From: Deltaproteobacteria bacterium
GTDB lineage: Bacteria; Desulfobacterota; Deferrimicrobia; Deferrimicrobiales; Deferrimicrobiaceae
DNA: 64,000 nucleotides
Assembly: GCA_016219515.1 (NCBI GenBank)
Contig: JACRMU010000007.1
Location: 40-64,039, forward strand
Reading direction: 5' to 3'
A program made the translations under genes and the position numbers. This document shows, piece after piece, positions 1,473-43,109 of the stretch (its first letter is position 1; every line of letters starts with the position of its first letter). Below the pieces are notes generated by a model that saw only the letters and a list, made by a program, of their open reading frames with translations, was not told the DNA's origin and did no database searches.

Positions 1473-1494
1473 TCGCTACCGGGGGGAGCAGGGG

Positions 1495-2552: not shown

Positions 2553-2560
2553 GGGCCCCG

Positions 2561-5674: not shown

Positions 5675-5705
5675 GAGGGGAAAGCCGGCCGAAGGATGCA
5701 GGGGA

Positions 5706-6554: not shown

Positions 6555-6557
6555 GCG

Positions 6558-9081: not shown

Positions 9082-9084
9082 CCC

Positions 9085-9438: not shown

Positions 9439-9445
9439 GAGGAAA

Positions 9446-10555: not shown

Positions 10556-10625
10556 GGAGAAGGGAAGGCGCGGCCATGATATCATCTGCCGGGCAGGGAA
10601 TCGTTTTCATCATGGGAATCGAACG

Positions 10626-12907: not shown

Positions 12908-13073
12908 TTTGCGGGGTCCTCCGAACTGATTTTTCTGTTTATAGCATAGCGGTCGCGTAAAATGAAACAGGAAACGCCCGCCCGGGTCCGGAGCCGGGCG
13001 GCCGGCTTGAGAATATTTCTCCGGCAATGCAACCTATCGGCAAATTACGGTTATCTTATTAGGAAAAGTTTTC

Positions 13074-16184: not shown

Positions 16185-16296
16185 TGCGTTCACGTCTCTC
16201 CTCTCCGGAACTCCCGCGGGAAAAATCGGGGGCACGTCCTTCCGTCCGTGTTTTCCGGTTACAATAAAAGAACTTCACGTCAAGCAAGGAGAGCGC

Positions 16297-17208: not shown

Positions 17209-17248
17209 ATCCTCCCCCCGGCAAAAGGGATATGTTGTAATTTGCGGG

Positions 17249-17821: not shown

Positions 17822-17879
17822 CAACCCGCCGTATTTCCTTGTACTAAAAGGGAGAATCGGCAGGACGGGGGGGAAAGCC

Positions 17880-23076: not shown

Positions 23077-24002
23077 GGCGGATTGCCGTCGTCTGCGCGG
23101 CCCTTTGCCTGTCGATCGCCGCGGAATCCCGCGGCGCAGCGGTGGAGGTTCAGGCGTTTTTCGGGAAGGAGGCCCTTCCGTTCAGTTGGGTTTCGGGGGT
23201 GTTCCGCGACGGGAACGACGTTTGGGTCGGCACGAAGAACGGTACGAGGATCTACAGCCTGGCCGGAAAGGCATGGAGAACGCCGCCGCCGGGTTTCACG
23301 GGGAACGCCGTGACGGGCCTTGCACGGTTCGGAGGGTCCCTGTACGTGGCGACCGAGGCGGGGCTGAACATCGGCGGCCCGGCCGGCTGGAAAGCCATGA
23401 ACCGCATCGCGAACGCCGTGGCGTCCGACGGAGACCTGGCCGCTTCGGAAAACACGTTGTGGATGGCCGCCCGCACGATGACCGGGGGACTCCTTCAGTT
23501 CGACGGATCCGGCTGGAAACTCCTTTCCCGGGGGGAAGGAACGGGGGTGATGAGCAACATTACCCGCCTTTCCGTCCGGAACGGGGAGCTGTGGGCCGGG
23601 ACCACGAACAACGGGATTTACCTTTTGAAATCGGGAAAATGGACGGTCATCGGCCCGGAGGACGGACTTCCCGGACTCTGGATCACCTCGCTTGCGGGAA
23701 CCGGCGACGGGATGTACGCGGGTTCTCCCGACGGCCTGGGGTTTTACGACGGGAGCCGGTGGAGGGTCTACCGCGTGGCGGACGGCCTCCCCAGCAACAA
23801 AGTGAGCGCGCTCAAAGTATATGAAAACAGGGTCGTTATCGGGACGTTCGACCGGGGGATTTCGATCTTCGACGGGAGGCGCTTCCGGAACATCGGGCGC
23901 GCGGAAGGGCTCTCCGACGACCGCGTGGAATCGATCGAGGTCGTCGGGGACGAGATCTGGGTGGGCACGATCAACGGGCTGTCGCTCGTCCGCATCCCCT
24001 GA
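23073..24002 (+). CDS. Secreted beta-propeller protein with two-component-regulator-propeller (Reg_prop)-like repeats
   Basis: ATG overlaps the cytochrome stop (ATGA). Signal peptide. Six repeats of the type ...WVGTKNGTRIYS..., ...LWAGTTNNGIYLLKSGKW..., ...IWVGTINGLSLV... Confidence 0.7.
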   Translation: MRRIAVVCAALCLSIAAESRGAAVEVQAFFGKEALPFSWVSGVFRDGNDVWVGTKNGTRIYSLAGKAWRTPPPGFTGNAVTGLARFGGSLYVATEAGLNIGGPAGWKAMNRIANAVASDGDLAASENTLWMAARTMTGGLLQFDGSGWKLLSRGEGTGVMSNITRLSVRNGELWAGTTNNGIYLLKSGKWTVIGPEDGLPGLWITSLAGTGDGMYAGSPDGLGFYDGSRWRVYRVADGLPSNKVSALKVYENRVVIGTFDRGISIFDGRRFRNIGRAEGLSDDRVESIEVVGDEIWVGTINGLSLVRIP

Positions 24003-24045
24003 AGCGGTTCCGGGGACGAGCGGCACGGGCGAGGGAGGAAAGAGC

Positions 24046-27000
24046 GTGGCGTACCGTCCGAGGCGCTTGAGCCGGTCCTGGTTCTTCGCCCTTGCCGTGG
24101 GGATCCTGCTCGCGGCGTGGAGCGCGGGGCTGGCGGACCACTCGAAGATGGACCCCAACGCCAGCTGCTATGCGTGCCACACCCTCAAGACGTCCGAGCT
24201 CCTGTCGGCGACCAAGAGCATCCGCACTTCCAAGCCGAAGATGACCAAGCTCGCGGACAACACGACGTGGACGGCGGGGATGCCTCTTTCGTGCGATTTC
24301 TGCCACCAGTCGGCGACCGACGTCCCTTCGCTGGTAAAGAGCACGAAAACCTCGCGCCACCCCGTGGACACGATCGGGAACGAGACGGACCCGACCCGGG
24401 AGATTTCCTGCAACGACTGCCACAACGCCTACTGGGATGCGACGGTCCCCGCCAACGACAACCACGAGGTGACCCCCAAGACGCTCCTGACGCAGGACAA
24501 CACGGACGGCTACCCGGACCACAAGGGGCTGGGATCGGACAACCAGTACGCGCACAACCTGCGTTCGAACCCTCCCCATCTGTCGAAGGGATACACCGGG
24601 AACATGAGTTTTTCCTCGACGACCCCCCGGATTTCCGACGGGACGTTCTGGTCGTCGTCGCTCGACGGAAGCAACCTGGTCTGCTTCGTCTGCCACGGGG
24701 GGTCGTCGTATCAGCCCCCGTTCCGCGGCGCGTCGGGGCGGTCGCAATACAACGTGATGTCGGATTACTCGGCGTCGGGTACGGCGGCGGGGCACAAGAT
24801 CAACGCGAACTTCGGCTCCAGCGGGGCCCTGGCGCAGGGCTCGAAGCTTCCGTGCTACGACTGCCACGCTTCCCATGGGAGCGCGAGCCGGCGCCTGATC
24901 CTGGACGGATATTTCGCGAGCGACAACGGGATGCGGAACATCGAGGGGACGTCGAGCCTCGCGGTGAACACGTTCACGAGCAGTTCCCCCGGCGCGACGG
25001 GAGACATCGCGGTGTGCGCGGGATGCCACAACACGGGGCTTGCGGCGACGGCGTTCAGCGCGACGGGGAAGGTGGAGAAGCTCAACCCGATGGACCCGTT
25101 CGTGAGCAGGGCGACCAGCCATACGGTGGTCGGGTCGTGGTCCTCGCCGTCGGCGACGAGGGGATGCCTGGGAACGTTTTCGGGTTGCCACGCCAGCCCG
25201 CACAATCCGATCGGGGAGAGCCTGGGAGGCCTTGGCTGCTCGACCTGCCACTCGACGATCTACACGGCGATGCAATCGTCCACGGGGTACCACCACGCGA
25301 TTCTTTCGGACAACGCGACGGCCCCGTACCCGACGAACGCGACTCCGGGCTCCGCGCCTGCGGACCGCACGTGCCGGATCTGCCACGTGGACCACGATTT
25401 CTTCAGCACCCAGACGGGCTCGAACCACCTCCGCGCGCGGAACCTGCGGCAGAGCATCTCGGTGCAGCCCAACGACAACATCTCCGCGGCGAGGCCCCTG
25501 AACACGGACTACGACAACACGCTCGGGGGGGTGTGCACCTCCTGCCACGCCAACGTGCAGACCAAGAGCGCGACGAACCTCCGGTCGGACAACGTGTGGC
25601 AGACCTCCGTGGTCAGCCAGGCGCTGTACGGGGTCGGCGCGCACAACTATGCGGTCACCTCTCCCTACATCAAGAGCCATTTCTCGTCCGACAACTCGGA
25701 CGCGACGAGCATCTTCCAGGCGAACTGCACGAAATGCCACAACGACACGATGCAGAAGAACTTCCAGGACAACAACGTTTCGTATCCGAACCAGTTCGGC
25801 CTGCACGACTCCGGGGCGGGAGGCGGCAGCGTCGTCGACAAGCTGCTGGGCCCGCTGGGGGCGACGAGCGTCGCTGAGGTCGCTGGGGAGAACTTCTGCT
25901 ACCGCTGCCACAGCCACAGCACGGACACGCTGCTGAACGGCCCCTCCAAGACGCAGGACGGGTACGACTGGTACGGCGGCAGCGTCAAGGCGATGACGCA
26001 GGCGTCGGAGAGCGTCTTCGGGGACTTCCAGAAGACCTCGCGGCACCCGGTCAAGACGGCGGACCAGAAAAGCGGGACCGCGGTGGTGTCCTGCGGGAAC
26101 TGCCACAACGCGCATGTCGTCGGCAGGACCGCGGACAACGCGGCGGTATCGAATCCCGACAATACCTATGCGATCGCCGTGTACACCACCATGGCGGGGC
26201 GGCTCAACTTCTGCCTGGCGTGCCACGACGGGAATCCCCCGGACAACACGGTGTCGGCGACCCGGTTCGTCCCCGCCCGCGTGCGGGTGGACAACGCCGT
26301 CATGAACAAGTCCACGTACGCGGCCAGGTCGCACTGGACCAGCGGCCAGGGTCAGATGTTCCTGTCCCTGGTGTGCACGAATTGCCATGACCGGCACGGC
26401 GGTTCGTTCGGAAAGCTTTTGGACAACGGCGTGAAATACCACCGCGGGCCGCAGTGGACCCCCCCCGCGTGCAATACCTGCCACGGATTCACCTCCCCTT
26501 CGGCGCCCACGGGGAACAACAACACGGAATGCTTCCGCTGCCACACGTACCAGGGGACCGGATACCCGGCGATCGAATCGGACCGGACGGCGGGGGACAA
26601 CGGCTACTTCGCCGCGCCGGGGACATCCGTGCGGTTCTCTCTCCGGTATGCCGGGAAGGCGGTGTACGAGGGGGCCTACTCGCCCCACAACAACACCGTG
26701 AAGACCTTTTCCGGGTTCGACAACGTGTCGCGCACGGTGAGCGACTGCAGGAATTGCCACGACGTCCACGGGACGGCGAACCCGTACGCGCAGCTCAAGG
26801 GGACGTACCGCTCGGGGAATTACGGGCTCTGCTTCCAGTGCCACGGGAAGACCGCGACCGCCACGGACAACATCTCCCGGTACTACCCGACGGCGGCCGG
26901 CGGCGACAACACGGACAGCGCGAGCGCGACGAACGCGGGCCACAACATCAAGACGGCGGGGGGGTACCTGGCGCAGTACACCTCGCTGCCGTGCTACGAC

Positions 27001-28680
27001 TGCCACGTGACGCACGGAAGCAAGAACTCGAACACGCAGCTCAAGAGCGACCAGACGGAGCGCGGCTGGAGCGGCCTGGGCGACACCAAGTACGGGAGCA
27101 CGCCTTCGGACAACGCGGCGGACAACAACAGCCGGAGGTTCTGTTTCGGGTGCCACGTGGCGTCGGACGGTTCCGGCACGGCGACGGTGGAGAACCTGTC
27201 GCAGGCGGGCGCGAACCGCCTGAAGCTGCCTTCGACCTACGGGATCGAGGAGCACAAGGGGGCGAGCGCGCAGGGGTGCCACCGGTGCCACTACGGGAAG
27301 AACTACAACGACAACACGTACGGCCCGCACTACCCGGCGACCGGGTTGTGCGACACGTGCCACGAGAGCCAGGGGACGAAGTCCGCGGGAGTGCCGACGT
27401 ACAACGGGGCGCACCTGAGGCACGTGGACAACACGACGTACCGGTTCGCCTGCAAGGAGTGCCACAGCTGGACGAAGGGATCGGGCCAGGCGGTGCACAA
27501 GAACGACAACACCGCCTCCGCGATCCACGCGGAGGTGGCGTTCGACAACCAGGGCTCCTCGTCGTGGGACAACATCCTGTACGCGGTGTCCACGACGTAC
27601 AAGTACCGCTCGCTGTACGCGAACCCCTATGGCGCAAGCGTGGCGTCCCCCGCGTACTCGGGAGGCACGGACAACGGAACGGACGGAAAGCAGGCGCTCC
27701 TGAAATGGCGGAACGGCAACTGCAGCAACGTCTGGTGCCACAGCACGGCGTACGCGGACAACGTGGCGAGGACCGTCGCGTGGCAGTCGGGCGTGCTCCC
27801 TTCCGGCTGCACCGGCTGCCACGGCGGCGGGAAGGCGGTCGCCGCCGCGAGCCGGATGGGGGCGTCCAACAACGGTTCTCCGGCGCACCTCGCGCACATC
27901 GACTCGAACCTCAGGTGCTACAAGTGCCATTACGGGACGATCACCGACAACACGCAGGACACGGTGATCAACGTCTACGACAACCATGTCAACGGCGTGA
28001 AAAACGTGCGCTTCCCGTCCGAGGTCGGCGGGACGTGGGACAACACGAACAAGACCTGCTCGGCGACTTACTGCCACGGCACGCCGGCGACGCTGCCCAA
28101 GTGGGACAACCTGTCGACGGTTTCCGGCTGCGGCGTGTGCCACCAGAACCAGGGGGCGGGGGCGACCGGGAGCTACGCGGGCCCGCACCATCCCCACACG
28201 ATCAGCAGCAAGCTCCGGATCGCCTGCGAGACGTGCCACGCGGTGAACGCGGCCGCGCATTCCAACACGATCCACGCGGGCGGCCCCGACAACGCGGCGT
28301 CGGGGAAGACGGCGGAAGTCCTGTACACCGATAACGCGCAAGGCCGGACGTACTCCGGCGTCGCGTTCCTGGCGAAGAACCTTTGGGTCAATCCGTTCGA
28401 CAACAACGCGGCGCTCACGCCCGTCTATGCGGGAGGTGCCTCCTCCGTGGGCAACGACGCCGTCAACGCCGCCATCCACTGGACGCAGGGGACCTGCAGC
28501 CAGGTGTGGTGCCACTCCAACGCGAAGCCCCTGGGCTGGAAGGGGGTGGCGGGGAACAACGCCTTCCGCTCCCCGCCGTGGACCTTTACCGCCTGCAATT
28601 ACTGCCACAATCCCCGTCCCACGGACGTGAACTGCACTCCGTGCCACCGCGGCGTCGGGACCGCCGCCGCCATGGCGGGC
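24046..28680 (+). CDS. Giant multiheme c-type cytochrome, N-terminal segment (about 29 CxxCH plus atypical sites); continues in another frame
   Basis: GTG at 24046 preceded by GGGAGGAAAGAGC (SD). Signal-like N-terminus with a dense run of CxxCH. The reading frame stays open to 28986, but the sequence after about 28680 is R/S/T-rich nonsense while the +2 frame carries on the cytochrome motifs, implying a frameshift near 28660-28690. Confidence 0.75.
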
Positions 28681-28681
28681 G

Positions 28682-31600
28682 TTCCGGGACGGGACACGAC
28701 AACCACGTGGACGGGATCAAGACGGTCAAGTTCGGCACGACGCTGCGGACGACGGGAATCAACCAGCAGGCGACCGGCACATACGACAATGCCGCGTACC
28801 GCTGCTACAACACGTATTGCCACAGCAACGACACCGACAACGCCGCCTTCAACACGGCGGCGCAGCAGCCGGAGGACAACACGATCTCGTGGAACTCGGC
28901 TGCGGGCGGCACCTGCCGCACGTGCCACAAGTACACCGCGGCGTCCGGCAACCCGATGGTCAGCAACGCGCACGACAACCACGTGAACAACTACGCCCGG
29001 CTCGGGAAGTACATCGCATGTTATCAGTGTCACTCCGGAACGGTGGACGCCACGGACAACGTTCCGTCGACCCGGAGCTACCTCGACAACCATGTCAACG
29101 GCATCAAGAACGTCTATTTCGGCGCGGGCGTCGGCGCGTATGACAACACCCGGACGTGCCGGAACACCTATTGCCACCAGCAGGGGAACGCGCTGCTGTC
29201 TTCATTAACGCCGGGAGACAACCTGACTCCGGCGTGGACCGACAACTGGGCGTCGCTCTCCACGATCTGCAAGGGATGTCACGGCAGCCAGACGGGGACC
29301 GGTTACAGCAACCCTTCGTACTACGGGGAGCCGAATTACGACAATAATATCGGCAGTTCCGGGGCGCGGAACAGCCACTATGTGCATGTCAACTTGATGG
29401 CCGAGGGGGTGAACTGCCTGAAATGCCACCCGGATGTCGTCACGGCAGGGAACGCCATCGACAACGCGAGTGCGGCGATGCACATGAACGACAACGTGGA
29501 AGTGGCCCCGGGGCTGGGAGAGACGTTCGTCTGGGACCAGGCAACCAAGAGCTGCACGAATATCGTTTGCCACCAGGGAAACTCGACCCCGGTCTATTGG
29601 GGAGGGCCCGTCATCCCTTGTACCGCGTGCCACTCGTTTTCCCCCGTGGGGGAGGCGGCCCCGGCCCGTGTCTCCGGCCCGGCGCCCTCGCAGGGTCCCA
29701 GTCTGGCGTCGTCGCGCGGCGCCAGGTCGGCGACGACGCCGGCGATCGGCCCTGCGGCGTCCACGCTTTCCGTTCCTGCGCCGTCACAGGTTTCCGCTCC
29801 GATCCCGCCCCGGCTTCCGAAGTCCGGACGGCATATCAAGCCCATCGCCAGGATCCGGATCGCCGGCGGCTGGGACAACACGGGCCACGGGCGGACGATG
29901 GGGCACTACGTTTCCGGAAATCCTCCGGCCAACGCGTCGAGCCGTTTCTCCGCCTGCACCAACTACTGCCACTCCAACAACCCCATGTTGACTCCCCACA
30001 CGGACAACGCCGCCGGGCGCAACTTCTTCCGGCTCGCGACGGGCGGGGGGGGCGTCGCCCGGGCGGCGATCGACTGCACCACCGCCAACAACATCTGCAA
30101 CCAGTGCCACGCACTCGGTGGAGCGCTTGCGGCGCAGGCGACGCGGCAGGTCGGGGCGGCGCACTACGGGGCGAAGCACTCCTCGCCGGGAAACAACGGG
30201 GGTTACTTCTGCTGGGATTGTCACGATCCGCACGGGGGGGGGAGCGACTTCATGATCCGGGAGCGCGTGGCGGCGAGGACCGACAGGGGGGCGAACGGCG
30301 CAGGCCTCGGAATTCCGATCGTGACCCGGGCGACGTCGTTCACCGGCTCGGGGACCTACACGTGGAGTTCCTACGTAAAGGCGACCTTCGACGGCCTCTG
30401 CCAGGTCTGCCACTCCGCCGGGACGGGGATCCGGCATTTCCACAACTCGGCGGGCGGGTACGACAACGTTCATAATCCCGGAATCCGGTGCACGACGTGC
30501 CACACCCACAAACTGTCGGTGCCGGTCATCGGTTCCGTTGCCGACGATACGTTCAAGGTGCCCGGGATTTCAGGGAAGCTGGTGGCGGGAGACAAGGTCA
30601 CCGCGGTCCTGGTCGCGGTGCCGGGGGGGAAGGCCTCCTTCGACATGGGGAAGGTCAAGGGGATCCCGATGGCGGAAGTCCCCGCGAGCCCCGGCGGGCC
30701 GGGCATTCCGGCCGTCGACAACGGGACTTACCGGGGGACCTACACGATCCGGCCCGGGGATGACTACATCGAAGGGCGCATCGTCGGGCAGTTCGTGTCC
30801 TCCGACAACGTCGCAGCCGTGCCGCTGGCCTCGGCCTCCAAGTGGACGATCGACACGCAGCCGCGCGTGGCCTACGCCATCGACAAGACGGACCTTCCGG
30901 CCGACTCGGCGAGCAAGGCGAGAGTACGCCTTGTCGTCAAGGACGCCAACGGGAACGTCCTCAAGGGGAGGCGCTTCAAGCTGACGCTGGCGACGACCGA
31001 CGAATACACGGGCCTGGTGGGCGCCGGAAACTTCGGCAAGGACGTGGGGGCGACCGTCGAGGCCCTCTGGCAGGGGCAGACGGACGCCTGGGGGACGGTG
31101 GAATTCGACTACAAGGCGGGGTTCGCGGCGAAGACGGTGATCCTTGCCGCCAAGGACCTCGAATCGGGCGGAGTCGCGGTGGATTACATCACCTCCTACA
31201 AGGAGGCCTCCATCGACATTGCGCTGACCCCGCCCCGCAGCCTTGCCGCCGCGCGCCGCGGGCTGCAGTACATCATCAAGATCGAGGCGACCCGGACGGT
31301 GCTCACGGCCGACGGCCAGAGCCGGTCGGTGATCCGGGCGACGGTGACGGACCCCGGCGGGAAAGCGGTCGCGGGCGACAACGTCGTGTTCACGCTGTCG
31401 AGCCCGAACGGGTCGATACGGACGATCGAAGGGGTCACGAACGCTTCCGGGGTGGCGACGGCGGAGTACATCGCGGGGAAGAAGATCGGGATCGTCGTCG
31501 TCACCGCGACCGATATCCTGAGGAACGTCTCCGCAAGCGTCAGCATCGTCCTCCTGTCGGATGCCCCGGCGAAGATCTATCTCAAGGCGAGGCCCGAGAG

Positions 31601-32159
31601 CCTTCCGGCGGACGGGTTCAGCCGGTCGGACATCCAGGTGAAGGTGACCGACATCAACGACAACCCGAACGACAACACGAAGGTGGAGTTCCGGCTCGCG
31701 AAGGGGACGGGCAAGCTGGATTCCCAGGAGCGGGTGACGGACCGCTTCGGCGAAGCGCTGAACCGGTTTACCGCCGGGACCGTGCCGGGGATCGCGACCG
31801 TCCTTGCGACCGTGCGCTCGAAAGTCCCCACGTTGGCGGAGCTGGCCAAGGCGCAGAACGTCCTCTTCGTCCCGTATTCGGACCAGGGAGAGGAGATCCG
31901 GGTATCCCGATGGCTGAAGAAAAAGGGGGATACCGCCTTGAAGGGGGAGGCCGTCGTGGAGTACACGATCGGCCGGGGCGACACGGTCTACACGCTCAAT
32001 GCGCCGTACGATTGCCGGATCGACTTCCAGTACGTGGAATACTGGGACCGCGCCCAGACCGGCGACACGCTGGCCCAGATCACGCCGGTCGTCATCCCGG
32101 GATCCGCCGGCACGCTGCCGGCGTCGATCCCGGCGAGCCTTTCCCCAAGGAGAAGGTAA
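28682..32159 (+). CDS. Giant multiheme c-type cytochrome, C-terminal segment (about 9 CxxCH plus about 5 CX3-4CH, a P/S/A-rich linker, and tandem bacterial Ig-like domains)
   Basis: Begins ...GHDNHVDGIKTVKFG..., which repeats a motif found upstream (DNHVNGVKNVRF). CRTCH, CYQCH, CKGCH, CLKCH, CTACH, CNQCH, CWDCH, CQVCH and CTTCH. The C-terminal ~550 aa show Big_1/invasin-like repeats (...ADGFSRSDIQVKVTDINDNPNDNTKVEFRL...). Confidence 0.7.
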
Positions 32160-32192
32160 GGGACAGGGCGGCGGTTGTGCGTTTGTCGAAGT

Positions 32193-32213
32193 GGAGGGGG
32201 GGATGCCCCCTCC
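32193..32213 (+). terminator. GC-rich hairpin downstream of the giant cytochrome (possible terminator; the T-rich tract lies about 30 nt further on)
   Basis: GGAGGGGG-GGATG-CCCCCTCC: an 8-bp stem and 5-nt loop. TCTCTTTTTTCC at 32245..32256. Confidence 0.3.
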
Positions 32214-32279
32214 GGACGCCTTGAATATCGCGCTGTTTTACATCTCTCTTTTTTCCGTTCAAGCCGCTTGATTCCGCTG

Positions 32280-32307
32280 TTGTTTCGGCGCTTGTCCTGT
32301 CTATAAT
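32280..32307 (+). promoter_or_regulatory. Candidate sigma70-type promoter for the M6 protease operon (TTGTTT-N16-TATAAT)
   Basis: TTGTTT at 32280..32285, TATAAT at 32302..32307, about 55 nt upstream of the ATG at 32363. Confidence 0.35.
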
Positions 32308-32362
32308 ACTCCCGACGTGCTCGCGGTACGTCGATCGGCGCGCCAAACGCCAGAGGGGTGGC

Positions 32363-35300
32363 ATGACCGGACGGAAAGCTTGGCGTCTATGGATTTGTCT
32401 GCTCACGATCCTGGTCGCGTCCCGGGCGGAAGCCCTCCCCCCCCCACGGCCCGGCCTCGTGGACCCGCATACGCTGCGGTACCGGACCACGGGCCATAAG
32501 GTCCCCGTGCTCCCGAAAGCGGTCCGGGAGCATCGAATTTCTCCCCAAAAGGGGAAGTACCCGCTCGCCGCCGGTTTCTTCGCTGCGACAAGGTCCCTCG
32601 TGGCGGGGACAACGTCCGGCGTGAGGCCCCGCGCGATCCCGACGCCCGCCTCCGGCGCCCTCCGCCCGCTGATCGTGCTGGTCGACTTCGCGGACAAGCC
32701 GCACGATGACGCCGCGCACCCGGCCTCGGCGTACACTCCGCTCTTCTTCGGGAGCGGAGCGAGTGACCTGAGCGTCGCCAACTACTGGAATGAAGTGTCG
32801 TACGGGACGTTCACGCTCACCACGCTGTACAACCCCGACAGCACCTCGGTCGACATCGTCGGGTGGATCCGGCCGGCGGCATCCCCGGCCCTCTCCGGGG
32901 AATTCCGCTCGACGATCGTCTCCTACGCGCAGATCACGGACTCCGTCACGGGCGTCAACCTGACGAACCTGCGCACGCTGGTCACCGACATCGTCGCATA
33001 CCTCGACGGCGCGCCGAACAACCTGGATTTCGCACCGTACGCGGACCCCGCCACGGGGATCGTCCAGTCGCTGATCCTGGTGCACGCGGGGGCAGGGCAG
33101 GAGGACACGGGGAATACCGCGGACCTCTTTTCCCATAGCGCGTCCCTTGCATCTCCGGCCGGGACGAACGATACGGACGCCGGCGGCCATCAGGTCACGG
33201 TGGCCGACTACAGCGCCGTTCCGGAGCAGTTGAGCTTCGACCCCGCGACCGGCGCATCGACCCCCGTCCTCATCGGCGCGGGGGTGATCGCCCACGAAAT
33301 GGGCCACCTGTTCGGCCTTCCGGATCTCTACCCCACGTCCGGAACGTCCGGCCAGACCGGCGGCTACTCGGGAGTCGGCGTTTTCGACCTCATGGGCTAC
33401 GGGCTGTGGGGGAGCAACCTTCTCGCCCGGCCGGACAATCCCGCGCACCTTTCCGCGTGGTCCAAGTCGGACCTGGGGTGGGTCACCCCGACGGTCCTTT
33501 CCGCGACGTCTTCCAATACGCTCCTTCCGGCGGGGTCGACGGCGTCGGCCTACAAGGTGTACCCCAACGGGCCGGGGGACGAGTCGCAATATTTCCTTCT
33601 CGAGCTGAGGGGAAAAGACGGCCCCGGACTCTTCGACCGGTACCTGCCCGGGAACGGGGTGCTCGTCTGGCGCGTGGACTCCGAGCAGATGTCCGGTCAA
33701 CGGTCGGGCAACGCGGCGAACAACGATTCGAGCTTCCCCGCCCTTTCCGTGCAGGAAGCGGATCTCTCCGGCGCAAGCCCGTCGCCGCACCTGTTCCAGC
33801 CGTTCTCCATCGGCGCCGACGCGTTCGGCGCCGCGGGGGATTTCTTCTCCTCCTCGGGTCAGGTCTTCTCCCGGGTCCTGCCGGTGGACGGCCAGAACCT
33901 CACCAATTCCTCTCCGACGATCAACACCTCCTCCGTCAACCACCTCTTCGACGCCGGGTTCCTCGTCACCGTCCGGAATTTCGTCGTGACCATCGTCACC
34001 CGGATCGTGAACGCGGTCTTCGACCTGGCCGTCGAGCTTCCCTATTGGAAGGTCTACCGCTCCACGGATGCCCAGCCGACCCTGAACACCAACAAGACGC
34101 TTTCCTACGGCTTCGACGGTTCGAACCGGACCTGGGTGGGGACGACGGACCAGGGAATCTGGATTTTCGCCTTGACCACGTGGACCCAGATCAACTCGGC
34201 CCTTCTCCGGTCCTCCCGGATCCAGGCGATGGCCTATGAGCCCTCCACCGGCTCCATGTGGGTCGGAACCGATCAGACGGTGGCGAAGATCCGGCTCGAC
34301 CAGGTCCGGAGCGACGAAATCTTTCCCGCTTCCCCCTCCACCATCAACGTGAAGGGGATCCGGATCGCCCGCGACCTGACGAAATGGATCGGAGGGGGGC
34401 GACAGCTTGCGATCGTCACCGATGCCGGGAACAACCAGCCCAGCGGCCTTGCGTACACCGACCTGACTTTCAAGGTCCCCCTCCTGTCGGGCGAGCAGAT
34501 CACCTGCGTGGAGTTGGACAACGTCTTTTCGACGGACCAGACCAAGGACCTTCTGTACATCGGGACGTCCGTGGGGAACATCTACAGGAATTTCCGGGAG
34601 TCGGACAACGCCGTCTTGAGCCTCTACACCCTGTCCCTTCTTTCCTTCGAGAAGATGACCGCGCTGTCGCTGGCGGCCAATGCGCCGGGGGCCGTCAACG
34701 CGATGGCCATCGACAAGACGGGGCTGCTCTGGGTCGCGACCGACCGGGGAGTCTTCGCGTTCGACCGCGGGGACCCTTCGTCTTCCGACCCGGGCATCCG
34801 CTCCGACCGGTACAACCCCTTCGACCTTGCCGGGGACAACTCGGTGACCTCGCTCGTCTACTTCCCTCCCTCGTTCAGCGGGACGGGGGCCCACGGGTCG
34901 GCCGGGTTCATCGAGCCGACCGGCATCGCCTTCCAGGACACGGGACAGGCGCGAAACATCGTCTGGGTGTCCTACGGAGATACCGTCGGCTCCACGGAGT
35001 CGGCTTCCGGGGGCGCGGGGCGGATCGACCCCAACGTCCTCCTGAACACCCGGATCCCCAAGGACAACGCCGCCGGCATCAATGCCGTCGATTCGGCGCG
35101 GATCGGCCATGCGACGATGACGTTCACGAGGAACGCTTCCAGCCCGGAAAAGGGGCCGGCCGTCAACGATCTCATCGCCGCCGCGGGGGACGGCTCCTCC
35201 AACCTGTGGTTCGGGACGAAGAATTCCGGCGCCGTCCGTTTCGGTTCGGGGGCCTCGCTGACCCTCGACAAGACGGTCTACATCAACGATTCCGCCGCCG

Positions 35301-35938
35301 CCGGCGTGACGCTGGTCGACGAAAACGCCGTTACGACCTCCCTGGAGGTGACGGTCACCGGTTCGTCGGACGGGACCGGGTTTTCCATGACGCTTCCCAG
35401 GGGGACGGACAACGTCTACCGCGGCACGTTCGGCTTTTCGACGTCGGCCACCGACAACACGAGGTCGCCCAAGGTAATCCTGGTGAAGAACGGGGATACC
35501 GTGACCGTCAGCTACCGGGACATCAATCCGCCCTCCACCAAGTCCGCTTCCGCCACGTGGAGGAGCGTCTTCCCCTTCCACGACAGCCTGTTCATCGGAG
35601 GATGTTTCCTCTCGACGGCGGCATACGGCTCGGCGATGGCGCCCGAGGTGCAGACGCTCCGGCGTTTCCGGGATGCCTGGCTCCTCCGGGCCCCGGGAGG
35701 GGAAGCGCTCGTGTCCGCGTATTACCGGGTGAGCCCCCCTCTCGCGGCGTTCATCGCCGGGCGGCCGCTTCTGCGGCTTGCGGCAAGGGTGTTCCTCGCC
35801 CCCGCGGTCCTTCTGGCGAATGTCGCCGTGGGCGCGTGCCTTGCGGAGAAAATCGCCTCGTTGCTGATCGTCCTGCTCCTCCCGGGGTTCCTTTTTCTCT
35901 TTCCTCGGCGAACCATCGGACGGGCCGGCCGCCGTTGA
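32363..35938 (+). CDS. M6-family (immune inhibitor A-like) metalloprotease-domain protein with beta-propeller repeats and a conserved C-terminal sorting-like tail
   Basis: Signal peptide. VIAHEMGHLFGLPDLY (HExxHxxGxxDxY, diagnostic of M6/InhA). Later Reg_prop-like repeats (WVGTTDQGIWIF, LLYIGTSVGNIY, LWVATDRGVFAF). C-terminal CFLSTAAYGS...LRRFRD...YYRVSPP... followed by a hydrophobic stretch ending ...PRRTIGRAGRR. Confidence 0.8.
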   Translation: MTGRKAWRLWICLLTILVASRAEALPPPRPGLVDPHTLRYRTTGHKVPVLPKAVREHRISPQKGKYPLAAGFFAATRSLVAGTTSGVRPRAIPTPASGALRPLIVLVDFADKPHDDAAHPASAYTPLFFGSGASDLSVANYWNEVSYGTFTLTTLYNPDSTSVDIVGWIRPAASPALSGEFRSTIVSYAQITDSVTGVNLTNLRTLVTDIVAYLDGAPNNLDFAPYADPATGIVQSLILVHAGAGQEDTGNTADLFSHSASLASPAGTNDTDAGGHQVTVADYSAVPEQLSFDPATGASTPVLIGAGVIAHEMGHLFGLPDLYPTSGTSGQTGGYSGVGVFDLMGYGLWGSNLLARPDNPAHLSAWSKSDLGWVTPTVLSATSSNTLLPAGSTASAYKVYPNGPGDESQYFLLELRGKDGPGLFDRYLPGNGVLVWRVDSEQMSGQRSGNAANNDSSFPALSVQEADLSGASPSPHLFQPFSIGADAFGAAGDFFSSSGQVFSRVLPVDGQNLTNSSPTINTSSVNHLFDAGFLVTVRNFVVTIVTRIVNAVFDLAVELPYWKVYRSTDAQPTLNTNKTLSYGFDGSNRTWVGTTDQGIWIFALTTWTQINSALLRSSRIQAMAYEPSTGSMWVGTDQTVAKIRLDQVRSDEIFPASPSTINVKGIRIARDLTKWIGGGRQLAIVTDAGNNQPSGLAYTDLTFKVPLLSGEQITCVELDNVFSTDQTKDLLYIGTSVGNIYRNFRESDNAVLSLYTLSLLSFEKMTALSLAANAPGAVNAMAIDKTGLLWVATDRGVFAFDRGDPSSSDPGIRSDRYNPFDLAGDNSVTSLVYFPPSFSGTGAHGSAGFIEPTGIAFQDTGQARNIVWVSYGDTVGSTESASGGAGRIDPNVLLNTRIPKDNAAGINAVDSARIGHATMTFTRNASSPEKGPAVNDLIAAAGDGSSNLWFGTKNSGAVRFGSGASLTLDKTVYINDSAAAGVTLVDENAVTTSLEVTVTGSSDGTGFSMTLPRGTDNVYRGTFGFSTSATDNTRSPKVILVKNGDTVTVSYRDINPPSTKSASATWRSVFPFHDSLFIGGCFLSTAAYGSAMAPEVQTLRRFRDAWLLRAPGGEALVSAYYRVSPPLAAFIAGRPLLRLAARVFLAPAVLLANVAVGACLAEKIASLLIVLLLPGFLFLFPRRTIGRAGRR

Positions 35939-37745: not shown

Positions 37746-38813
37746 ATGAAAAACTGGAAGAGGATGGCGTGGCTGATCGTGGTGACGGCTCTCGTGGCGG
37801 GCTGCTCGCGGCCGGTGATCCGTGAGCACGCTCAACCCTCCAAGGCCAAGGATACCTACCTTCGCATCAAGCGGGTCGCGATCTTCCCACTGGAAAACTA
37901 TTCGGAGACCCGGGACGCGGAGAAGATGGTGGACGCCCTCCTGGTGCCTGCGCTCCGGCTGGAGAAGGTCTTCAACGAAGTGGAGGATACGCGGTTCACC
38001 CGCGACGTGATGAAGAAGCTGAAGATCACCGGGACGGACATCCTGGAAAAGGAGGTCGTCCGGAAGCTGGGCGACGAAATGAACGTCCAGGCGATCGTTT
38101 ACGGGAAGATCCTCGGCTACGGAAAGGGGAAGGAGAAGGATGCGTCCTCCCAGGTGACGATGGATATGGCCATGGTCGAGCCCTCCACGGGGAGCGTTCT
38201 CTGGGTGGGGAACGTGTCGGCGATCGGCGGGCTGACCGCCGGGAAGATCTTCGGCGTCACGGAAGGGAAGACCGACGTGGAAGTGGCCAGGGATGCGGTT
38301 CGCGCCCTGGCCTCCCGGCTTGCCGACGAAATCCGCCGGGCGCGGGAACAGGAACGGAAGGGGATCGTCGCGGAGCTGAAGAAGGAAGAGGAGATCGAAA
38401 AGGCGAGGCTGGACAAGCTGAAGGGGGAGACCGGGAAGATCCAGGAGCAGCTGGACAAGGCGAAGGCGGAGGCCGGCGCGATCAGGGACGCCGCCTCGAA
38501 AGAGGCCCAGGCGGTCAAATCGGACCTGGAAATGCAGAAGGCGGCGCTGGACGCGGAGAAGGCGAGGACGACGTCCGCGCAGCAGGATATCGAAAAAGAG
38601 AAGATGAAGGTGGAGATGGAAAAGAGAAAGATCGAGGAGGATGCGAAGAGGATCGGGGAGGAAAAGAAACGGCTGGAAGAGCTGAAGAAGAAATCCGAGG
38701 GTGCGATCAAGGAGGAGCCGGTCAAGGAGGGCGCTTCCCCGGCCGCGCCGGCCCCTGCGCCGGCCGCGCCCGCTCCGCCTCCCGCCGCGCCCGCGGGAAC
38801 ACCGGCGCAATAG
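37746..38813 (+). CDS. Lipoprotein with an N-terminal CsgG/LpoB-like globular domain, a K/E-rich coiled coil and an A/P-rich C-terminus
   Basis: Lipobox LVAGCS. ...RVAIFPLENYSETRDAEKMVDALLVPAL... Long EEIEKARLDKLKGETGKIQEQLDKAKAEAG... coiled coil. C-terminal PAAPAPAPAAPAPPPAAPAG. Confidence 0.55.
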   Translation: MKNWKRMAWLIVVTALVAGCSRPVIREHAQPSKAKDTYLRIKRVAIFPLENYSETRDAEKMVDALLVPALRLEKVFNEVEDTRFTRDVMKKLKITGTDILEKEVVRKLGDEMNVQAIVYGKILGYGKGKEKDASSQVTMDMAMVEPSTGSVLWVGNVSAIGGLTAGKIFGVTEGKTDVEVARDAVRALASRLADEIRRAREQERKGIVAELKKEEEIEKARLDKLKGETGKIQEQLDKAKAEAGAIRDAASKEAQAVKSDLEMQKAALDAEKARTTSAQQDIEKEKMKVEMEKRKIEEDAKRIGEEKKRLEELKKKSEGAIKEEPVKEGASPAAPAPAPAAPAPPPAAPAGTPAQ

Positions 38814-38921: not shown

Positions 38922-40004
38922 TTGAGGAACGCATGGTTCAGGAGGATCGGATCGGTATTGGCGGCCGCTGCGGCATGCGGCCTGTGGATGGGATGTTCCA
39001 CCGCGGACGGGAAAAACGAGATCGTGGGGACCGCCAACGGCGAGGAGATCCGGGTGGCCGAGCTCCGCGAGTTTCTGGGAGTCCGCAGCGGTTCGACGGC
39101 AGCGTCGGATATCCCGGCGGAAAAGAAAAAGGAGGCGCTGGACCGGTTGATCGGCGGCCGTCTCCTTGCGCAGGAAGCGCGGGCGAAGGGCCTGGACAAC
39201 ACCGAGGAATTCCGCGCGCAGATCCGGCAGAACGAGCAGGACCTGTGGATCACCGCGCTCTTCCGGAAGGAGATCGACGCCAAGTCCTCGGACATCGACA
39301 AGGAGGTCAAGGCGGAAGCGAAAAAAATGATGGAAGCGGACAAGAAGCTCACCGAGAAGGACGCGGAATCGCGCGCCGGGAAGCTGACGTACGATATGAA
39401 GGTACGGAAGATCCAGGAGGAATTGATCGCCTCCGCGAAAAAGGAGGTCCCGCCTTCCATCGACAAGGCGCTGCTGGAACGGATCGGGAAGAAGGAGAAC
39501 GTCGCCGACGACGCGGTCATCGCGACGGCCGGCGCGGAGAAGGTCAGCTACGGCGAAGCGAAGCGGATGCTCCAGGCCATCGGCGGGGGCTCGCACGGCT
39601 CCGAGGACCTGTCGCGGAACCCGACGGCGATCGAAAGGATCCTGGACCGGGAGCTCACGAAACGGGCCCTTCTCGGCCTGGCGAGGAAACAGGGGATCGA
39701 AGGGTCGAAATGGCTGGCGGAAATACGGAAGGAGATGGAGAGGATCCTCCTCATCAACATCCTGGCGGAGAAGGAGATTCTCAAGGGCATCGTCGTGACC
39801 GACAAGGACCTCGATGCGACCTACAAGGAACATGCGGACATGTTCGTCCAGAACGGGAAAAAGATTCCGTTCGCGCAGGTCAAGGAGCAGATCCGGGGAT
39901 TCGTCGCGACCAACATGAAGAGAAAAGCCATCGAGTCGTATGTCGAGGCGCTGAAAAAGAAGGCCAAGATTACGGTGAACGAAAGCGTTCTCGCCAAGGT
40001 GTAA
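38922..40004 (+). CDS. SurA N-terminal-domain-like periplasmic chaperone lipoprotein
   Basis: Lipobox LWMGCS. IVGTANGEEIRVAELREFL resembles the SurA_N/PpiD N-terminus. No clear PPIase domain seen. Confidence 0.5.
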   Translation: MRNAWFRRIGSVLAAAAACGLWMGCSTADGKNEIVGTANGEEIRVAELREFLGVRSGSTAASDIPAEKKKEALDRLIGGRLLAQEARAKGLDNTEEFRAQIRQNEQDLWITALFRKEIDAKSSDIDKEVKAEAKKMMEADKKLTEKDAESRAGKLTYDMKVRKIQEELIASAKKEVPPSIDKALLERIGKKENVADDAVIATAGAEKVSYGEAKRMLQAIGGGSHGSEDLSRNPTAIERILDRELTKRALLGLARKQGIEGSKWLAEIRKEMERILLINILAEKEILKGIVVTDKDLDATYKEHADMFVQNGKKIPFAQVKEQIRGFVATNMKRKAIESYVEALKKKAKITVNESVLAKV

Positions 40005-40016: not shown

Positions 40017-40967
40017 ATGTCCATGAGGAAGCGGGCGCTGCAGGCGGCGGTGTTGGTGCTGGCCCTTTGGGCCGCGGGGCGGGCGGCCGCGGAGACAACC
40101 TTCGAGCTTCTCTATTCCGTCGGGGGTTTCGGCATCGGGAGGCAGAGCTTCGACCGGCCCGTCGACGTCGTCGAGGACCGGGAAGAAAACGTATACGTCG
40201 TGGACCAGGGGAACAACCGGATCCAGGTGCTCGACCGGAGGGGGACGTTCCTCAGGGAATGGGGAGGACGCGGGTTCACCCCGGGCCTTTTCGACAAGCC
40301 GTCGGCGATCGCGATCGAACCGGTCGCGGGAAGCCTTTTCGTGGTGGACCGGCTCAACCATCGCGTCCAGAAGTTCGATCCGAACGGAAGGTTCCTGATG
40401 TCGTTCGGACGGCTCGGCTCCGGGGACGGGGATTTCAACCGGCCGATGGACATCGCGCTGGACAGGAAAGGGAACATCTTCGTCGCGGACACGGGCAACA
40501 ACCGGATCGAGAAATTCGACCCGAGCGGAAAATTCATCCTGGAATGGGGAAAGTACGCGCGCCGTCGCCGGGGGGCCGAACTGACGAACCCGGTCTCCAT
40601 CGCCTATTCCGATGAAGGGTTCGGCTATATTTACGTGCTGACGTCGCCCGAATGCGTCGTGCAGAAATACGACATCGACGGGGTGCTCGTGAAAACCTGG
40701 CCGATGCGCCCGAAGGGGGAAAGCGCGCTCTGCGGTCCTTCCCGCATACGGATTGAACCGCGGAAGTATACGGTGTATATTGCGGATACGGAAAACAACC
40801 GCTTGATTCTGTTCGACAAAGAGGGCGAACCCCTGGGGGAATTGCGGGGGGGGAAGGTCCCGCTGAAGAAGCCCGGCGGCCTGTTCGTGAACATTTCGTT
40901 CGGGGAGAATGTCGTCGTGGCGGACACCGGCAACCATCTCATTCAAAAGTTCAGGAGGGAAAGGTAG
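40017..40967 (+). CDS. NHL-repeat beta-propeller protein
   Basis: Signal peptide. Repeated ...VYVVDQGNNRIQVLD..., ...LFVVDRLNHRVQKFD..., ...IFVADTGNNRIEKFD..., ...VVVADTGNHLIQKF... Confidence 0.8.
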   Translation: MSMRKRALQAAVLVLALWAAGRAAAETTFELLYSVGGFGIGRQSFDRPVDVVEDREENVYVVDQGNNRIQVLDRRGTFLREWGGRGFTPGLFDKPSAIAIEPVAGSLFVVDRLNHRVQKFDPNGRFLMSFGRLGSGDGDFNRPMDIALDRKGNIFVADTGNNRIEKFDPSGKFILEWGKYARRRRGAELTNPVSIAYSDEGFGYIYVLTSPECVVQKYDIDGVLVKTWPMRPKGESALCGPSRIRIEPRKYTVYIADTENNRLILFDKEGEPLGELRGGKVPLKKPGGLFVNISFGENVVVADTGNHLIQKFRRER

Positions 40968-40969
40968 TC

Positions 40970-41557
40970 ATGCGCGTTCCTGCGACGACTCCGCTTCTTT
41001 CCGTGATGTTTTTCTGCTGCATGGCGTTCGTGGCGGGAACGGCGCTGGCCGAGGAAAAGGCGATGACTCCCCTTGCGGGGGGGATCCCCATGATCGAGGG
41101 GATCAAGATGCTGGAGGTGGGGACCGCCGCGCCCGATTTCAGCGTCAAGGACTCCGATGGGAAGCCGTTCCGCCTCTCGGAGGAGAAGGGGAAGAAGGCG
41201 TTCCTCCTCGTGTTCTGGTCGATCTTCTGCGAACCGTGCCGGGCCGAAATGCCGGTCATCCAGAAGATGCACGAGAAGTACCGGGAAAGCGGTCTGAACG
41301 TCGTCACGATCGCCCTCGACGGCGAGCCGCTGGTCGGCAGCATCGCCGGGTTCATCCGCCAGGAGGGGTACACCTTCCGGGTGTTGATCGACGAGCTGGA
41401 TTCCCAGGAGATGTTCAAAGTGGCCGATCCCTACGGCGTGGCGGGGACCCCGACCCTCTTTCTCCTGGACCGCGCGGGGAAGGTGGCCCTCGCCAGGGCG
41501 GGCCGGCTGACGGATGAGGAGCTGGAAAAGGCCATCCAGGCGGTTCTGAAAAAGTGA
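40970..41557 (+). CDS. TlpA-family thiol:disulfide oxidoreductase
   Basis: Signal peptide. FWSIFCEPCRAEMP. Confidence 0.8.
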   Translation: MRVPATTPLLSVMFFCCMAFVAGTALAEEKAMTPLAGGIPMIEGIKMLEVGTAAPDFSVKDSDGKPFRLSEEKGKKAFLLVFWSIFCEPCRAEMPVIQKMHEKYRESGLNVVTIALDGEPLVGSIAGFIRQEGYTFRVLIDELDSQEMFKVADPYGVAGTPTLFLLDRAGKVALARAGRLTDEELEKAIQAVLKK

Positions 41558-41561: not shown

Positions 41562-43109
41562 GTGATGTGGGCGGCCCTCCGCGGTGCGACCCTCGCCGCG
41601 CTGTTCTGCCTTTGGGCCGGGAGCGCTTTAGCCGTCGCCGTGGGGGAGCCGGCGGCGCCCATCGAGGGGGAGGACCTGAACGGGGAGCGGGTCGTCCTGG
41701 AGTCCTTCCTCGGAAAGAAGGCCGTCCTCCTGAAGTTCGGGTCGATCTACTGTTCGACCTGCGTGTCTTCCCTGGAGGATATCGCCCGCATCCAGCGGAA
41801 GTTCAACCCCTCGGAACTGCAGGTCATCGGCGTGAACCTGGACGTCTACGGCATGGCGCGCGTGCGGAAGTTCTACCGGGGCTACGCGACCCTCATCGAC
41901 TATCCGATGATCATCGACGAGAAGCTGGCGGCCTCCCGTCCATACGATATCCGGTCGATCCCCGCGCACGTCGTCATCGACAAGGGCGGGTTCGTCCGGT
42001 ACCTGTCGACGGGCGCTTCGGAGCAGGACCTGAAGAACCTGGAAGAGGTCGTCACCAAGGTGGTCCGCGGCGAGAGCGGCGTCGAGAAGCTGGCCAAGGA
42101 ACTCCCGCTGCAGGTTTTCCTGCCGCTGAATTTCACCAAGACCTACCAGGAGTCGATCTATGTCGTGGGAAAGACGAAGCCCGGGAGCAAGGTGTCTCTC
42201 GTCCTCAACGGCGGATCGCGGCAGAACTTGAAGACCATGCGGGATTATTTCTACATCCGCACTCCGCTTTCCCTGGGCTCGAACTACATCGAGCTTCAGG
42301 TCGTCGACGAGCAGGGCAGGAGGGTCAACCAGGGAGTGGTCCTGTTCCGGGCTCCGAAGGTCGGGGTGGGGATCGAGTCCCCCTTCCCGGAGTATCATTT
42401 CCACATGGAAAAAAACGAGGGGCCGTGCAGGAAGTGCCACGACCTCAATCCCCCCGCGGAGAAGGCGCAGGGATTCTCCGCGGCAACCCGGTTCTGCCTC
42501 GGATGCCACAAGGAGCTGACCGGCCAGCGGATGGCGCACGGCCCGATTCCCATCGGGGGGTGCGCGCCCTGTCACCGGTTCACGAGCAAGCCGAACCGGT
42601 ACCAGGTCGTCGCCCGGGGGCAGGAGCTCTGCTTCAAGTGCCACGAGGAGAAGCGGAAGGACCTCGTAAAGACCTATCTCCACGGCCCGATGTCGGCCGG
42701 GCTCTGCACGATCTGCCACAATCCGCACGGCTCCTCCGAGACGTACCAGCTTCGGAGATACGTGGGGGACCTCTGCGTCATGTGCCACGAGGGGATGAAG
42801 GCCGTGCAGCGGAAGCGGGTGGTCCACAAGCCGGTGGCCGACGGCGCATGCGCGAAGTGCCACGAGTCGCACTCCTCGGACCGGAACGACAACTTTCTCA
42901 AGATCCCGGGGGACGGCCTGTGCCTGTCCTGCCACACCGATTTCGGAAAGAGGGGGCATACCCACCCGAACGGCGTTCCCCCGAAGATGGACCGGAAGAT
43001 GAAATTGAGCAAGGAAGGCAATCTGGTCTGCCAGTCGTGCCATGAGGCCCATGCGTCCGACGAACCGAAGCTACTGGTGAAAGGAGGGTGCGGCGGATGT
43101 CATTCCTGA
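41562..43109 (+). CDS. Fusion protein: N-terminal TlpA-like thioredoxin domain plus C-terminal decaheme cytochrome c (paired-CxxCH / c3-c7 type)
   Basis: Signal peptide. Trx-like FGSIYCSTCVSSLEDI. The C-terminal half has CRKCH, CLGCH, CAPCH, CFKCH, CTICH, CVMCH, CAKCH, CLSCH, CQSCH and CGGCH, with conserved distal His spacing (...HGP...). Confidence 0.8.
   Translation: MMWAALRGATLAALFCLWAGSALAVAVGEPAAPIEGEDLNGERVVLESFLGKKAVLLKFGSIYCSTCVSSLEDIARIQRKFNPSELQVIGVNLDVYGMARVRKFYRGYATLIDYPMIIDEKLAASRPYDIRSIPAHVVIDKGGFVRYLSTGASEQDLKNLEEVVTKVVRGESGVEKLAKELPLQVFLPLNFTKTYQESIYVVGKTKPGSKVSLVLNGGSRQNLKTMRDYFYIRTPLSLGSNYIELQVVDEQGRRVNQGVVLFRAPKVGVGIESPFPEYHFHMEKNEGPCRKCHDLNPPAEKAQGFSAATRFCLGCHKELTGQRMAHGPIPIGGCAPCHRFTSKPNRYQVVARGQELCFKCHEEKRKDLVKTYLHGPMSAGLCTICHNPHGSSETYQLRRYVGDLCVMCHEGMKAVQRKRVVHKPVADGACAKCHESHSSDRNDNFLKIPGDGLCLSCHTDFGKRGHTHPNGVPPKMDRKMKLSKEGNLVCQSCHEAHASDEPKLLVKGGCGGCHS

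Follow-up and report, generated by a model that had tools for sequence, protein, structure and literature searches.

Peptidases of family M6, such as InhA of Bacillus and PrtV of Vibrio, share a zinc metalloprotease domain with a HEXXHXXGXXD-type motif, in which we take two His and one Asp to be the zinc ligands and the Glu to be the general base. The C-terminal CFI box is a named family (CFI-box-CTERM, NCBIfam model NF041770) on which a literature search for CFI-box-CTERM or CFIATAA found no paper, and no PADLOC model covers it. In a stretch of 64,000 nucleotides (nt) from a Deltaproteobacteria bacterium of the family Deferrimicrobiaceae (contig JACRMU010000007.1; hereafter the window), one gene on the forward strand encodes a protein in which an M6 domain is joined to a Reg_prop β-propeller, an immunoglobulin (Ig)-like domain and a CFI box that is followed by a hydrophobic helix and an Arg-rich tail. 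The protein is a real, fairly ordinary secreted zinc protease with all its parts in named families, and its domain architecture is undescribed and lineage-restricted. We read it, with moderate confidence, as a membrane-tethered periplasmic protease that would act within the gene cassette directly downstream of it.

Bioinformatic analysis placed the catalytic domain in peptidase family M6 on several grounds. Peptidase_M6 (PF05547) matched with 41.7 bits (cutoff 22), TIGR03296, the NCBIfam model of the M6 domain, matched aa 105–437 with 142 bits (cutoff 110.8), and the HEXXHXXGXXD arrangement is present as HEMGHLFGLPD at aa 311–321. An alignment of 62 orthologues, on which the AlphaFold 2 (AF2) model is also based, showed H311, E312, G314, H315, L319, P320, D321, Y323 and P324 to be invariant and G318 to be nearly so. 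The InhA structure 4yu5 was matched by the single sequence at E 2.9e-4 and by the orthologue profile at E 7.9e-14. Judged by these sequence relationships, the protein is a member of family M6. An earlier annotation made from the letters and translated open reading frames (ORFs) without database searches (hereafter the sequence-only reading) had called it an M6 protease from HEMGHLFGLPDLY and had named motif residues missing from a careful alignment as a refutation; both family models above their cutoffs and the conservation of the zinc motif in the orthologues bear the call out. The model of inactivated M6 domains dependent on the type IX secretion system (T9SS), NF052323, reached only 41.8 of the 600 bits that its cutoff demands, and the protease retains the catalytic Glu. 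In contrast to InhA and PrtV, the protease carries the propeller, the Ig-like domain and the CFI-box/transmembrane (TM) tail in place of their accessory domains, and compared with InhA its host belongs to a diderm lineage of metagenome-assembled genomes (MAGs) and its single-sequence similarity is low.

The ORF (32363..35938) begins with ATG, encodes 1191 aa exactly as the sequence-only reading had listed it, and has a GC content of 0.59/0.52/0.86 at the three codon positions, which is typical of real genes in a window of 64% GC. Window ORFs were accepted as coding when GC at the third position (GC3) was above 0.7 and above that at the second; an antisense ORF of 1064 aa (32387..35581) failed this filter and is treated as a shadow ORF. 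NCBI already lists the same protein, encoded on a 71.7-kb contig, under the title 'MAG: M6 family metalloprotease domain-containing protein [Deltaproteobacteria bacterium]', and one orthologue carries the CFI-box-CTERM name there. The 84 homologues found (33–76% identity, near-full-length or partial, nearly all of about 1100–1250 aa) come mostly from MAGs labelled Deltaproteobacteria or Candidatus Deferrimicrobiaceae. All 84 contain the zinc motif, which is invariant in the 62 aligned, and 79 contain the Cys-Phe box motif, so the observed motifs are not due to chance. A profile search of contigs with the orthologue alignment was swamped by the generic HEMGH pattern, and its single true orthologue was the locus L007. 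The gene itself adds little to what is known, being an annotated M6 protease with known domain types.

The AF2 model (pLDDT 82.7, pTM 0.77) ordered the domains as the catalytic domain (about aa 98–470), a small β-sandwich (534–558), the propeller (562–960) and the Ig-like domain (965–1067), followed by a low-confidence linker (1071–1079) and five helices (1083–1179). Ahead of the catalytic domain, a conserved segment at aa 25–60 gives way to a disordered stretch of low pLDDT at aa 61–89; by analogy with InhA, aa 25–97 are likely a pro- or latency segment with a disordered linker (aa 61–89). The propeller, of roughly seven blades according to the strand list of the model, matched Reg_prop (PF07494) with 25 bits (cutoff 20.4). 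In a Foldseek comparison with the Protein Data Bank (PDB), which the propeller dominated, the top matches were BT4663 (E 1.3e-16), BT4673 and PorZ (5m11, E 5e-10), and the orthologue profile matched 4a2l at E 4.6e-28. BT4663 and BT4673, hybrid two-component sensors (HTCS) of Bacteroides, and the T9SS protein PorZ have the same Reg_prop propeller followed by a β-sandwich, and the propeller of these closest structural relatives is a ligand-recognition unit (glycan-sensing HTCS domains, PorZ). Unlike them, the protease appears from the strand list to have one propeller rather than two, and it contains neither a kinase/regulator part nor a T9SS C-terminal domain. T9SS features were likewise missing from the family searches: the PorZ model NF052228 gave 31 bits against a cutoff of 260, NF052323 was also far below its cutoff, and the C-terminus is the helical CFI box instead of a β-sandwich domain. 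For the Ig-like region, the orthologue profile matched the 'cell surface protein' 8c8k at E 1.3e-10. The sequence-only reading had pointed to Reg_prop repeats shared with a stand-alone propeller at 23073..24002; both do match Reg_prop (the latter at E 4.5e-8), and their mutual similarity is weak (E 3e-6 to aa 562–645 of the protease).

The C-terminal module was assigned to NF041770 with 85.1 bits (cutoff 40) over model positions 1–69 of 69. It is a full-length, C-terminal match that starts with Cys-Phe, and nothing separates it from the family, within which it shows the CFL variant of CFI and falls into the subclass with a 'GxGxAEK' loop, a TM helix and a basic tail. CFLSTAAYGS begins at aa 1081 (nt 35603), with LRRFRD and YYRVSPP downstream of it, and Cys1081 lies 111 aa from the protein end, near the family median of 106 aa. 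The residues C, F, T, A, A, G, S, R, R, D, G, Y, Y, P, A, R and P of the box are invariant among the orthologues. When the module was modelled alone it was helical throughout (pLDDT 84.5), and a comparison of this model with PDB folds gave no match (best E 6). A Pfam search of the protease returned no model for the box, and a word-indexed search with the last 124 aa gave 2 matches. All the motifs quoted in the sequence-only reading (this module's three, HEMGHLFGLPDLY and the hydrophobic stretch) are thus present; its view of a conserved C-terminal module stands at the level of a whole family rather than of an ordinary TM helix, and the family name that it could not supply is CFI-box-CTERM. Its further suggestion of a sorting or anchoring domain survives for one part of the tail only: the hydrophobic helix with the Arg tail looks like an anchor, and the 69-aa box is a separate, portable helical domain.

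The genes that follow the protease were compared at eight loci (the window and L001, L003, L005, L006, L019, L020 and L021), whose proteases share 37–51% identity. All eight have in common the order protease, barrel of about 600 aa, lipoprotein of about 360–440 aa, SurA_N-like chaperone, NHL propeller, redoxin, redoxin–multihaem cytochrome, GAF-GGDEF protein and GTPase, with the SurA_N-like gene missing only from L019. The ATG of the barrel gene overlaps the stop codon of the protease gene as TGATG, an arrangement of translational coupling. The barrel gave a sub-cutoff Pfam match to Porin_4 (E 5e-5); it has 75 homologues, each of about 600 aa, of which some are called 'predicted porin', and several of their contigs match those of protease orthologues in size. 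The lipoprotein gave sub-cutoff matches to LpoB (E 1.2e-3) and a GNA1162-like domain (E 3.9e-3), and a gene of matching size stands at its position in 8 of 8 loci. Neither the barrel nor the lipoprotein had a meaningful match when its sequence was searched against the PDB. A 636-aa ORF at 3764..5674 was considered as a barrel paralogue and rejected, as it shows no similarity. The protease orthologue P0052 and the barrel homologue P0257 carry the label 'Candidatus Methanoperedens sp.' and each is listed on a 17,343-nt contig, in all likelihood a single one; as these genes would place an outer-membrane porin in an archaeon, the bin may be mixed. Elsewhere in the window, more genes for redoxins and multihaem cytochromes (cytochrome 225..1472, redoxin 1345..2049, cytochrome 2027..3763 and, on the reverse strand, redoxin 12362..13033) echo the redoxin and redoxin–cytochrome pair of the cassette. 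From protease to cytochrome, the cassette offers a defined unit for the envelope or extracellular-electron-transfer biology of the lineage (Table 1).

Table 1. Features of the protease gene, its product and its neighbours (window positions unless a locus is named)
Feature	Position	Strand	Details and basis
Signal peptide (predicted from sequence)	32363..32434	+	aa 1–24, MTGRKAWRLWICLLTILVASRAEA; A-x-A cleavage motif; AF2 helix 3–19
Conserved N-terminal segment	32435..32653	+	aa 25–97; PPPRPG..VDP..R.RTTG...; consensus of 62 orthologues
M6 (InhA-like) zinc metalloprotease catalytic domain	32654..33772	+	about aa 98–470; family models, InhA profile match; pLDDT about 90
Zinc-binding/catalytic motif HEMGHLFGLPDLY	33293..33331	+	aa 311–323; H311, E312, H315, G318, D321, Y323
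β-sandwich and Reg_prop β-propeller	33962..35242	+	aa 534–960; Pfam, AF2 strands; pLDDT mostly >85
Ig-like β-sandwich	35255..35563	+	aa 965–1067; AF2 strands; pLDDT >90
Linker SVFPFHDSLFIGG	35564..35602	+	aa 1068–1080; pLDDT <50 for aa 1071–1079
CFI-box-CTERM domain (NF041770)	35603..35809	+	aa 1081–1149; four helices from invariant Cys1081
Terminal hydrophobic helix, predicted TM	35840..35899	+	aa 1160–1179; Kyte-Doolittle 19-mer mean 2.2 at aa 1163; AF2 helix
Arg-rich tail FPRRTIGRAGRR and stop (35936..35938)	35900..35938	+	5 Arg in 12 residues; ends PRRTIGRAGRR
Promoter-like block CGGCGCTTGTCCTGTCTATAAT	32286..32307	+	TATAAT at 32302..32307; within the 203-nt gap 32160..32362
Ribosome-binding site GAGGGG	32353..32358	+	sequence
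Upstream neighbour: multihaem cytochrome part fused in frame to Big_1/invasin Ig part	28383..32159	+	Pfam; start uncertain
Predicted outer-membrane β-barrel, 593 aa	35938..37719	+	signal peptide; C-terminal ...FAFRYVF; directly downstream in 8 of 8 loci
Lipoprotein	37746..38813	+	lipobox LVAGC; weak LpoB/GNA1162-like domain, coiled coil, Pro/Ala-rich tail
SurA_N-like chaperone	38922..40004	+	Pfam/NCBIfam
NHL propeller	40017..40967	+	Pfam/NCBIfam
TlpA-like redoxin	40970..41557	+	Pfam/NCBIfam
Redoxin fused to 10-haem cytochrome	41562..43109	+	10 CXXCH motifs
Plasmid box carriers	L102 3659-4240; L103 1333-2184; L104 3233-4267; L105 2815-3225; L107 2809-3228		NF041770 above cutoff

On its upstream side, the protease gene is set apart by a promoter-like block. 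Alignment of the regions ahead of nine protease genes (the eight loci and L007) gave the consensus TCGGCACG-N4-TTG-N-TTATAAT, a conserved block that lies about 55–75 nt ahead of the protease start whatever gene is upstream. Its GGCACG-N4-TTG portion, which TATAAT or TATACT follows immediately, has a sigma-54-like −24/−12 spacing (GG-N10-G) with the usual C replaced by T or A, and its TG-N-TATAAT portion resembles an extended −10 element. In sequence the block thus resembles a sigma-54 site and an extended −10 promoter alike. A simple sigma-70 promoter and terminator scan of 31900..32500 had no matches and did not flag the block, no enhancer-binding protein gene was recognised among the window genes scanned, and a GC-rich hairpin 3' of the upstream gene was not significant (z −1.0).

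The gene upstream of this block differs between loci. A giant cytochrome and a Big_1 protein precede the protease in three of the eight loci (window, L006 and L020); L001 has nucleotide-sugar genes there, L003, L005 and L019 have PMT_2/TPR genes, and L021 has PqqD, radical SAM/SPASM and extracytoplasmic function (ECF) sigma factor genes. The protease is therefore placed at the head of the downstream unit, because of the promoter block, the stop/start overlap, the downstream order common to all eight loci and the variable upstream side, and the upstream cytochrome is not part of the protease unit. The sequence-only reading had proposed that the protease may process or anchor the adjacent giant multihaem cytochrome. 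The adjacency in the window, L006 and L020 fits this proposal, as does a cassette that itself ends with a multihaem cytochrome and has two redoxins, yet unrelated upstream genes at five of eight loci, the 203-nt gap with its conserved block between the two genes and the tight coupling to the downstream barrel leave the link weak, and we consider it very unlikely.

The reading that we prefer, a membrane-tethered periplasmic M6 protease working within its downstream cassette, can be set out in conditional terms. Sec would export the protein, and the N-terminal segment would probably keep the enzyme latent. The last helix would span the cytoplasmic membrane with the Arg tail inside, and the protease would face the periplasm. 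A short flexible linker would join an ectodomain of about 1050 aa to the four-helix CFI box, the helix and the Arg tail, with the box juxtamembrane at the outer face of the cytoplasmic membrane. Recognition of a ligand or substrate may fall to the propeller and Ig-like unit, and cleavage to the M6 domain; the substrate would most likely be envelope or surface proteins, within a lineage-specific cassette. The protease gene would open its own conserved transcription unit, and its product would act with the barrel, the lipoprotein and the chaperone, possibly as a complex.

Several observations weigh against this arrangement. From their conservation, the invariant polar residues of the box (C, T, R, R, D, Y, Y, S) appear to have a part beyond that of a passive spacer. 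Hydropathy shows another hydrophobic stretch, from aa 1143 on, that overlaps helix 4 of the box; since it adjoins the one at aa 1163, the two may form a hairpin or re-entrant arrangement. The barrel is predicted from a sub-cutoff Porin_4 match and sequence features. Finally, the shared gene order extends into housekeeping genes (the GTPase and the dihydroorotate dehydrogenase B subunit), so part of it may reflect related genomes rather than function.

The CFI box also invites comparison with classical sorting signals. Like LPXTG, PEP-CTERM, GlyGly-CTERM and PGF-CTERM, it has a motif near the C-terminus with a hydrophobic helix and then a basic cluster behind it, and it occurs on surface proteins of many unrelated kinds, and the '-CTERM' name given by NCBI groups it with such signals. 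As a true sorting signal, the box would be recognised by an enzyme that cleaves at or near the Cys, may attach a lipid or envelope polymer and releases the protease to the outer membrane or surface, perhaps via the barrel; the outer-membrane barrel, lipoprotein and SurA-like chaperone genes directly downstream are in keeping with this. An exhaustive search of 1.84 billion representative proteins with a profile of 35 orthologue boxes found at least 30,481 clusters (50% identity, E ≤ 1e-3), with 22,037 at E ≤ 1e-10. Among the top 144 representatives, the box was almost always C-terminal (median Cys-to-end 106 aa) behind a Gly/Ser-rich linker that precedes the invariant Cys, and in 131 the chain extended at least 90 aa beyond the Cys, with a hydrophobic helix and a tail rich in K/R. 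Basic tails are typical of the TM-bearing class (median of 5 K/R in the last 20 residues). As passengers the box has a wide range of surface-type proteins: a 72-protein subset included 83 Pfam families, among them S8 subtilases, propellers, PKD, fn3, DUF11 and Calx-beta. These properties speak for a sorting signal and equally for the membrane-tethered reading.

Other features of the family do not agree with it. In classical signals the motif stands directly before the TM helix and is confined to exported proteins, whereas here the Cys motif (aa 1081) and the TM helix (aa 1160) are about 80 aa apart with a folded helical domain of 69 aa between them. In a sample of 80 metagenomic loci (88 box-bearing ORFs, 746 kb), 66 box ORFs had a TM tail and 22 (25%) ended 70–91 aa after the Cys, so that about a quarter of carriers can do without the helix. 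On plasmids, tblastn with the box consensus matched 173 records (109 Ralstonia and 23 Xanthomonas, with Burkholderia, Paracoccus, Acinetobacter and the archaeon Haloquadratum also among them), and on these plasmids NF041770 scored above cutoff on cytoplasmic-type carriers with neither a TM tail nor a signal peptide visible when the sequences were judged by eye. Such boxes occur on cold-shock, Mrr+WYL and TPR proteins. Because the box is found on cytoplasmic-type proteins and about 25% of carriers have no TM helix, NF041770 is not a classical sortase-type signal.

A cognate enzyme was sought in the window and at other box loci. The sequence-only reading had proposed to look for a cognate sortase or exosortase gene; Pfam/NCBIfam scans of nearly all larger likely-coding window ORFs (all but a few, mostly on the minus strand, at about 47.5–61.3 kb) revealed no sortase-, exosortase-, rhombosortase- or CPBP-like gene, and clustering of the neighbours at the 80 box loci gave no family in more than 6–7 loci, the shared ones being housekeeping genes of related contigs. 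With no candidate enzyme among the scanned ORFs and no recurrent neighbour, and above all with the folded domain between motif and helix, the cytoplasmic-type carriers and the carriers that have no TM tail, the sorting-signal explanation is quite unlikely. The protease tail belongs to a very large named family, and the data argue against a conventional sortase-type signal; annotators of surface proteins will meet the module in sediment and groundwater bacteria, methanogen-like archaea and proteobacterial plasmids.

In the remaining explanation, the CFI box is an autonomous module that works on either side of the membrane with the TM helix optional. It would serve in membrane-surface binding or docking, oligomerisation, or Cys-dependent self-processing or attachment, and here, together with the barrel and the lipoprotein, it would deliver, position or assemble the protease in the envelope. 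This explanation accounts for a box present in both bacteria and archaea, on exported and cytoplasmic-type proteins, with or without a TM tail, for polar residues that stay strictly invariant even across very distant members, and for the confident compact helical unit of the AF2 model. We nevertheless regard it as unlikely, given the lack of a PDB fold match and of any paper on the box, and it is compatible with the anchoring reading rather than exclusive of it.

The junction between box and helix provides a further argument for separable parts. At three loci from other metagenomes (L022 10250-10252, L032 10250-10252 and L054 6750-6752), the 'TTPAEK' loop, which lies precisely where the box gives way to the TM helix, has an in-frame TAG in place of its conserved Glu; the frame remains open beyond this TAG and encodes a TM helix and an Arg-rich tail. 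The passengers of L022 and L032 are 75% identical and that of L054 is unrelated, so at least two independent cases are represented. In these loci TAG also commonly serves as a normal stop codon. A +1 frameshift occurs at the same junction in L026 (near 4163). These junctions could reflect a leaky stop that gives released and anchored forms, or decay; if the box is autonomous, the recurrent TAG would yield released and anchored isoforms.

The family holds other unusual carriers. The Burkholderia protein has a cold-shock domain and is retron Se72 effector-like, the Haloquadratum protein combines Mrr_cat and WYL and adjoins a restriction enzyme gene, and the Acinetobacter carrier is a TPR-like protein on a 5.2-kb plasmid. 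On conjugative plasmids, box proteins of 136–139 aa adjoin Dna2/Cas4-domain genes. In phages the box is essentially absent (1 match in 50,697 records). Four large proteins (P0099, P0100, P0101 and P0102) have two CFI boxes, one internal and one C-terminal, and may be fused gene calls or true duplications. A Hedgehog/intein-like homology of the box, considered for its 'G-C-F' resemblance, was rejected on account of the small size of the box (69 aa) and its predicted all-helical structure.

Further upstream in the window, a polysaccharide-type cluster (5643..11732) comprises a methyltransferase, three GT4 (Glycos_transf_1) and one GT2 glycosyltransferase genes and an XrtA-system-like polysaccharide deacetylase, which matched TIGR03006 with 227.6 bits, under the cutoff of 276; no exosortase gene was found in the window by the same scans. 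The large cytochrome ORFs 23821..28986 and 28383..32159 have about 600 nt in common, which they read in different frames. A single cytochrome of 2028 aa in L020 is matched in frame 1 as far as about 28329 and again in frame 3 from about 28707, and this change of frame suggests a frameshift or an assembly error. The Big_1 part (30360..32147) shares 63–70% identity by tblastn with the L020 and L006 proteins; it is fused in frame to the cytochrome in the window, whereas L020 and L006 encode it in a gene of its own. Ahead of the cytochrome block lie genes for a GeoRSP-like SPASM protein (16135..17208), an ECF sigma factor (within 16742..17821) and an anti-sigma factor with CBM48 (17742..18653), and in L021 a set of PqqD, radical SAM/SPASM, SPASM and ECF sigma factor genes (6639-9775) stands directly ahead of the protease gene. 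Because the SPASM/ECF set and the protease adjoin in L021, the cytochrome block of the window looks like an insertion between them.

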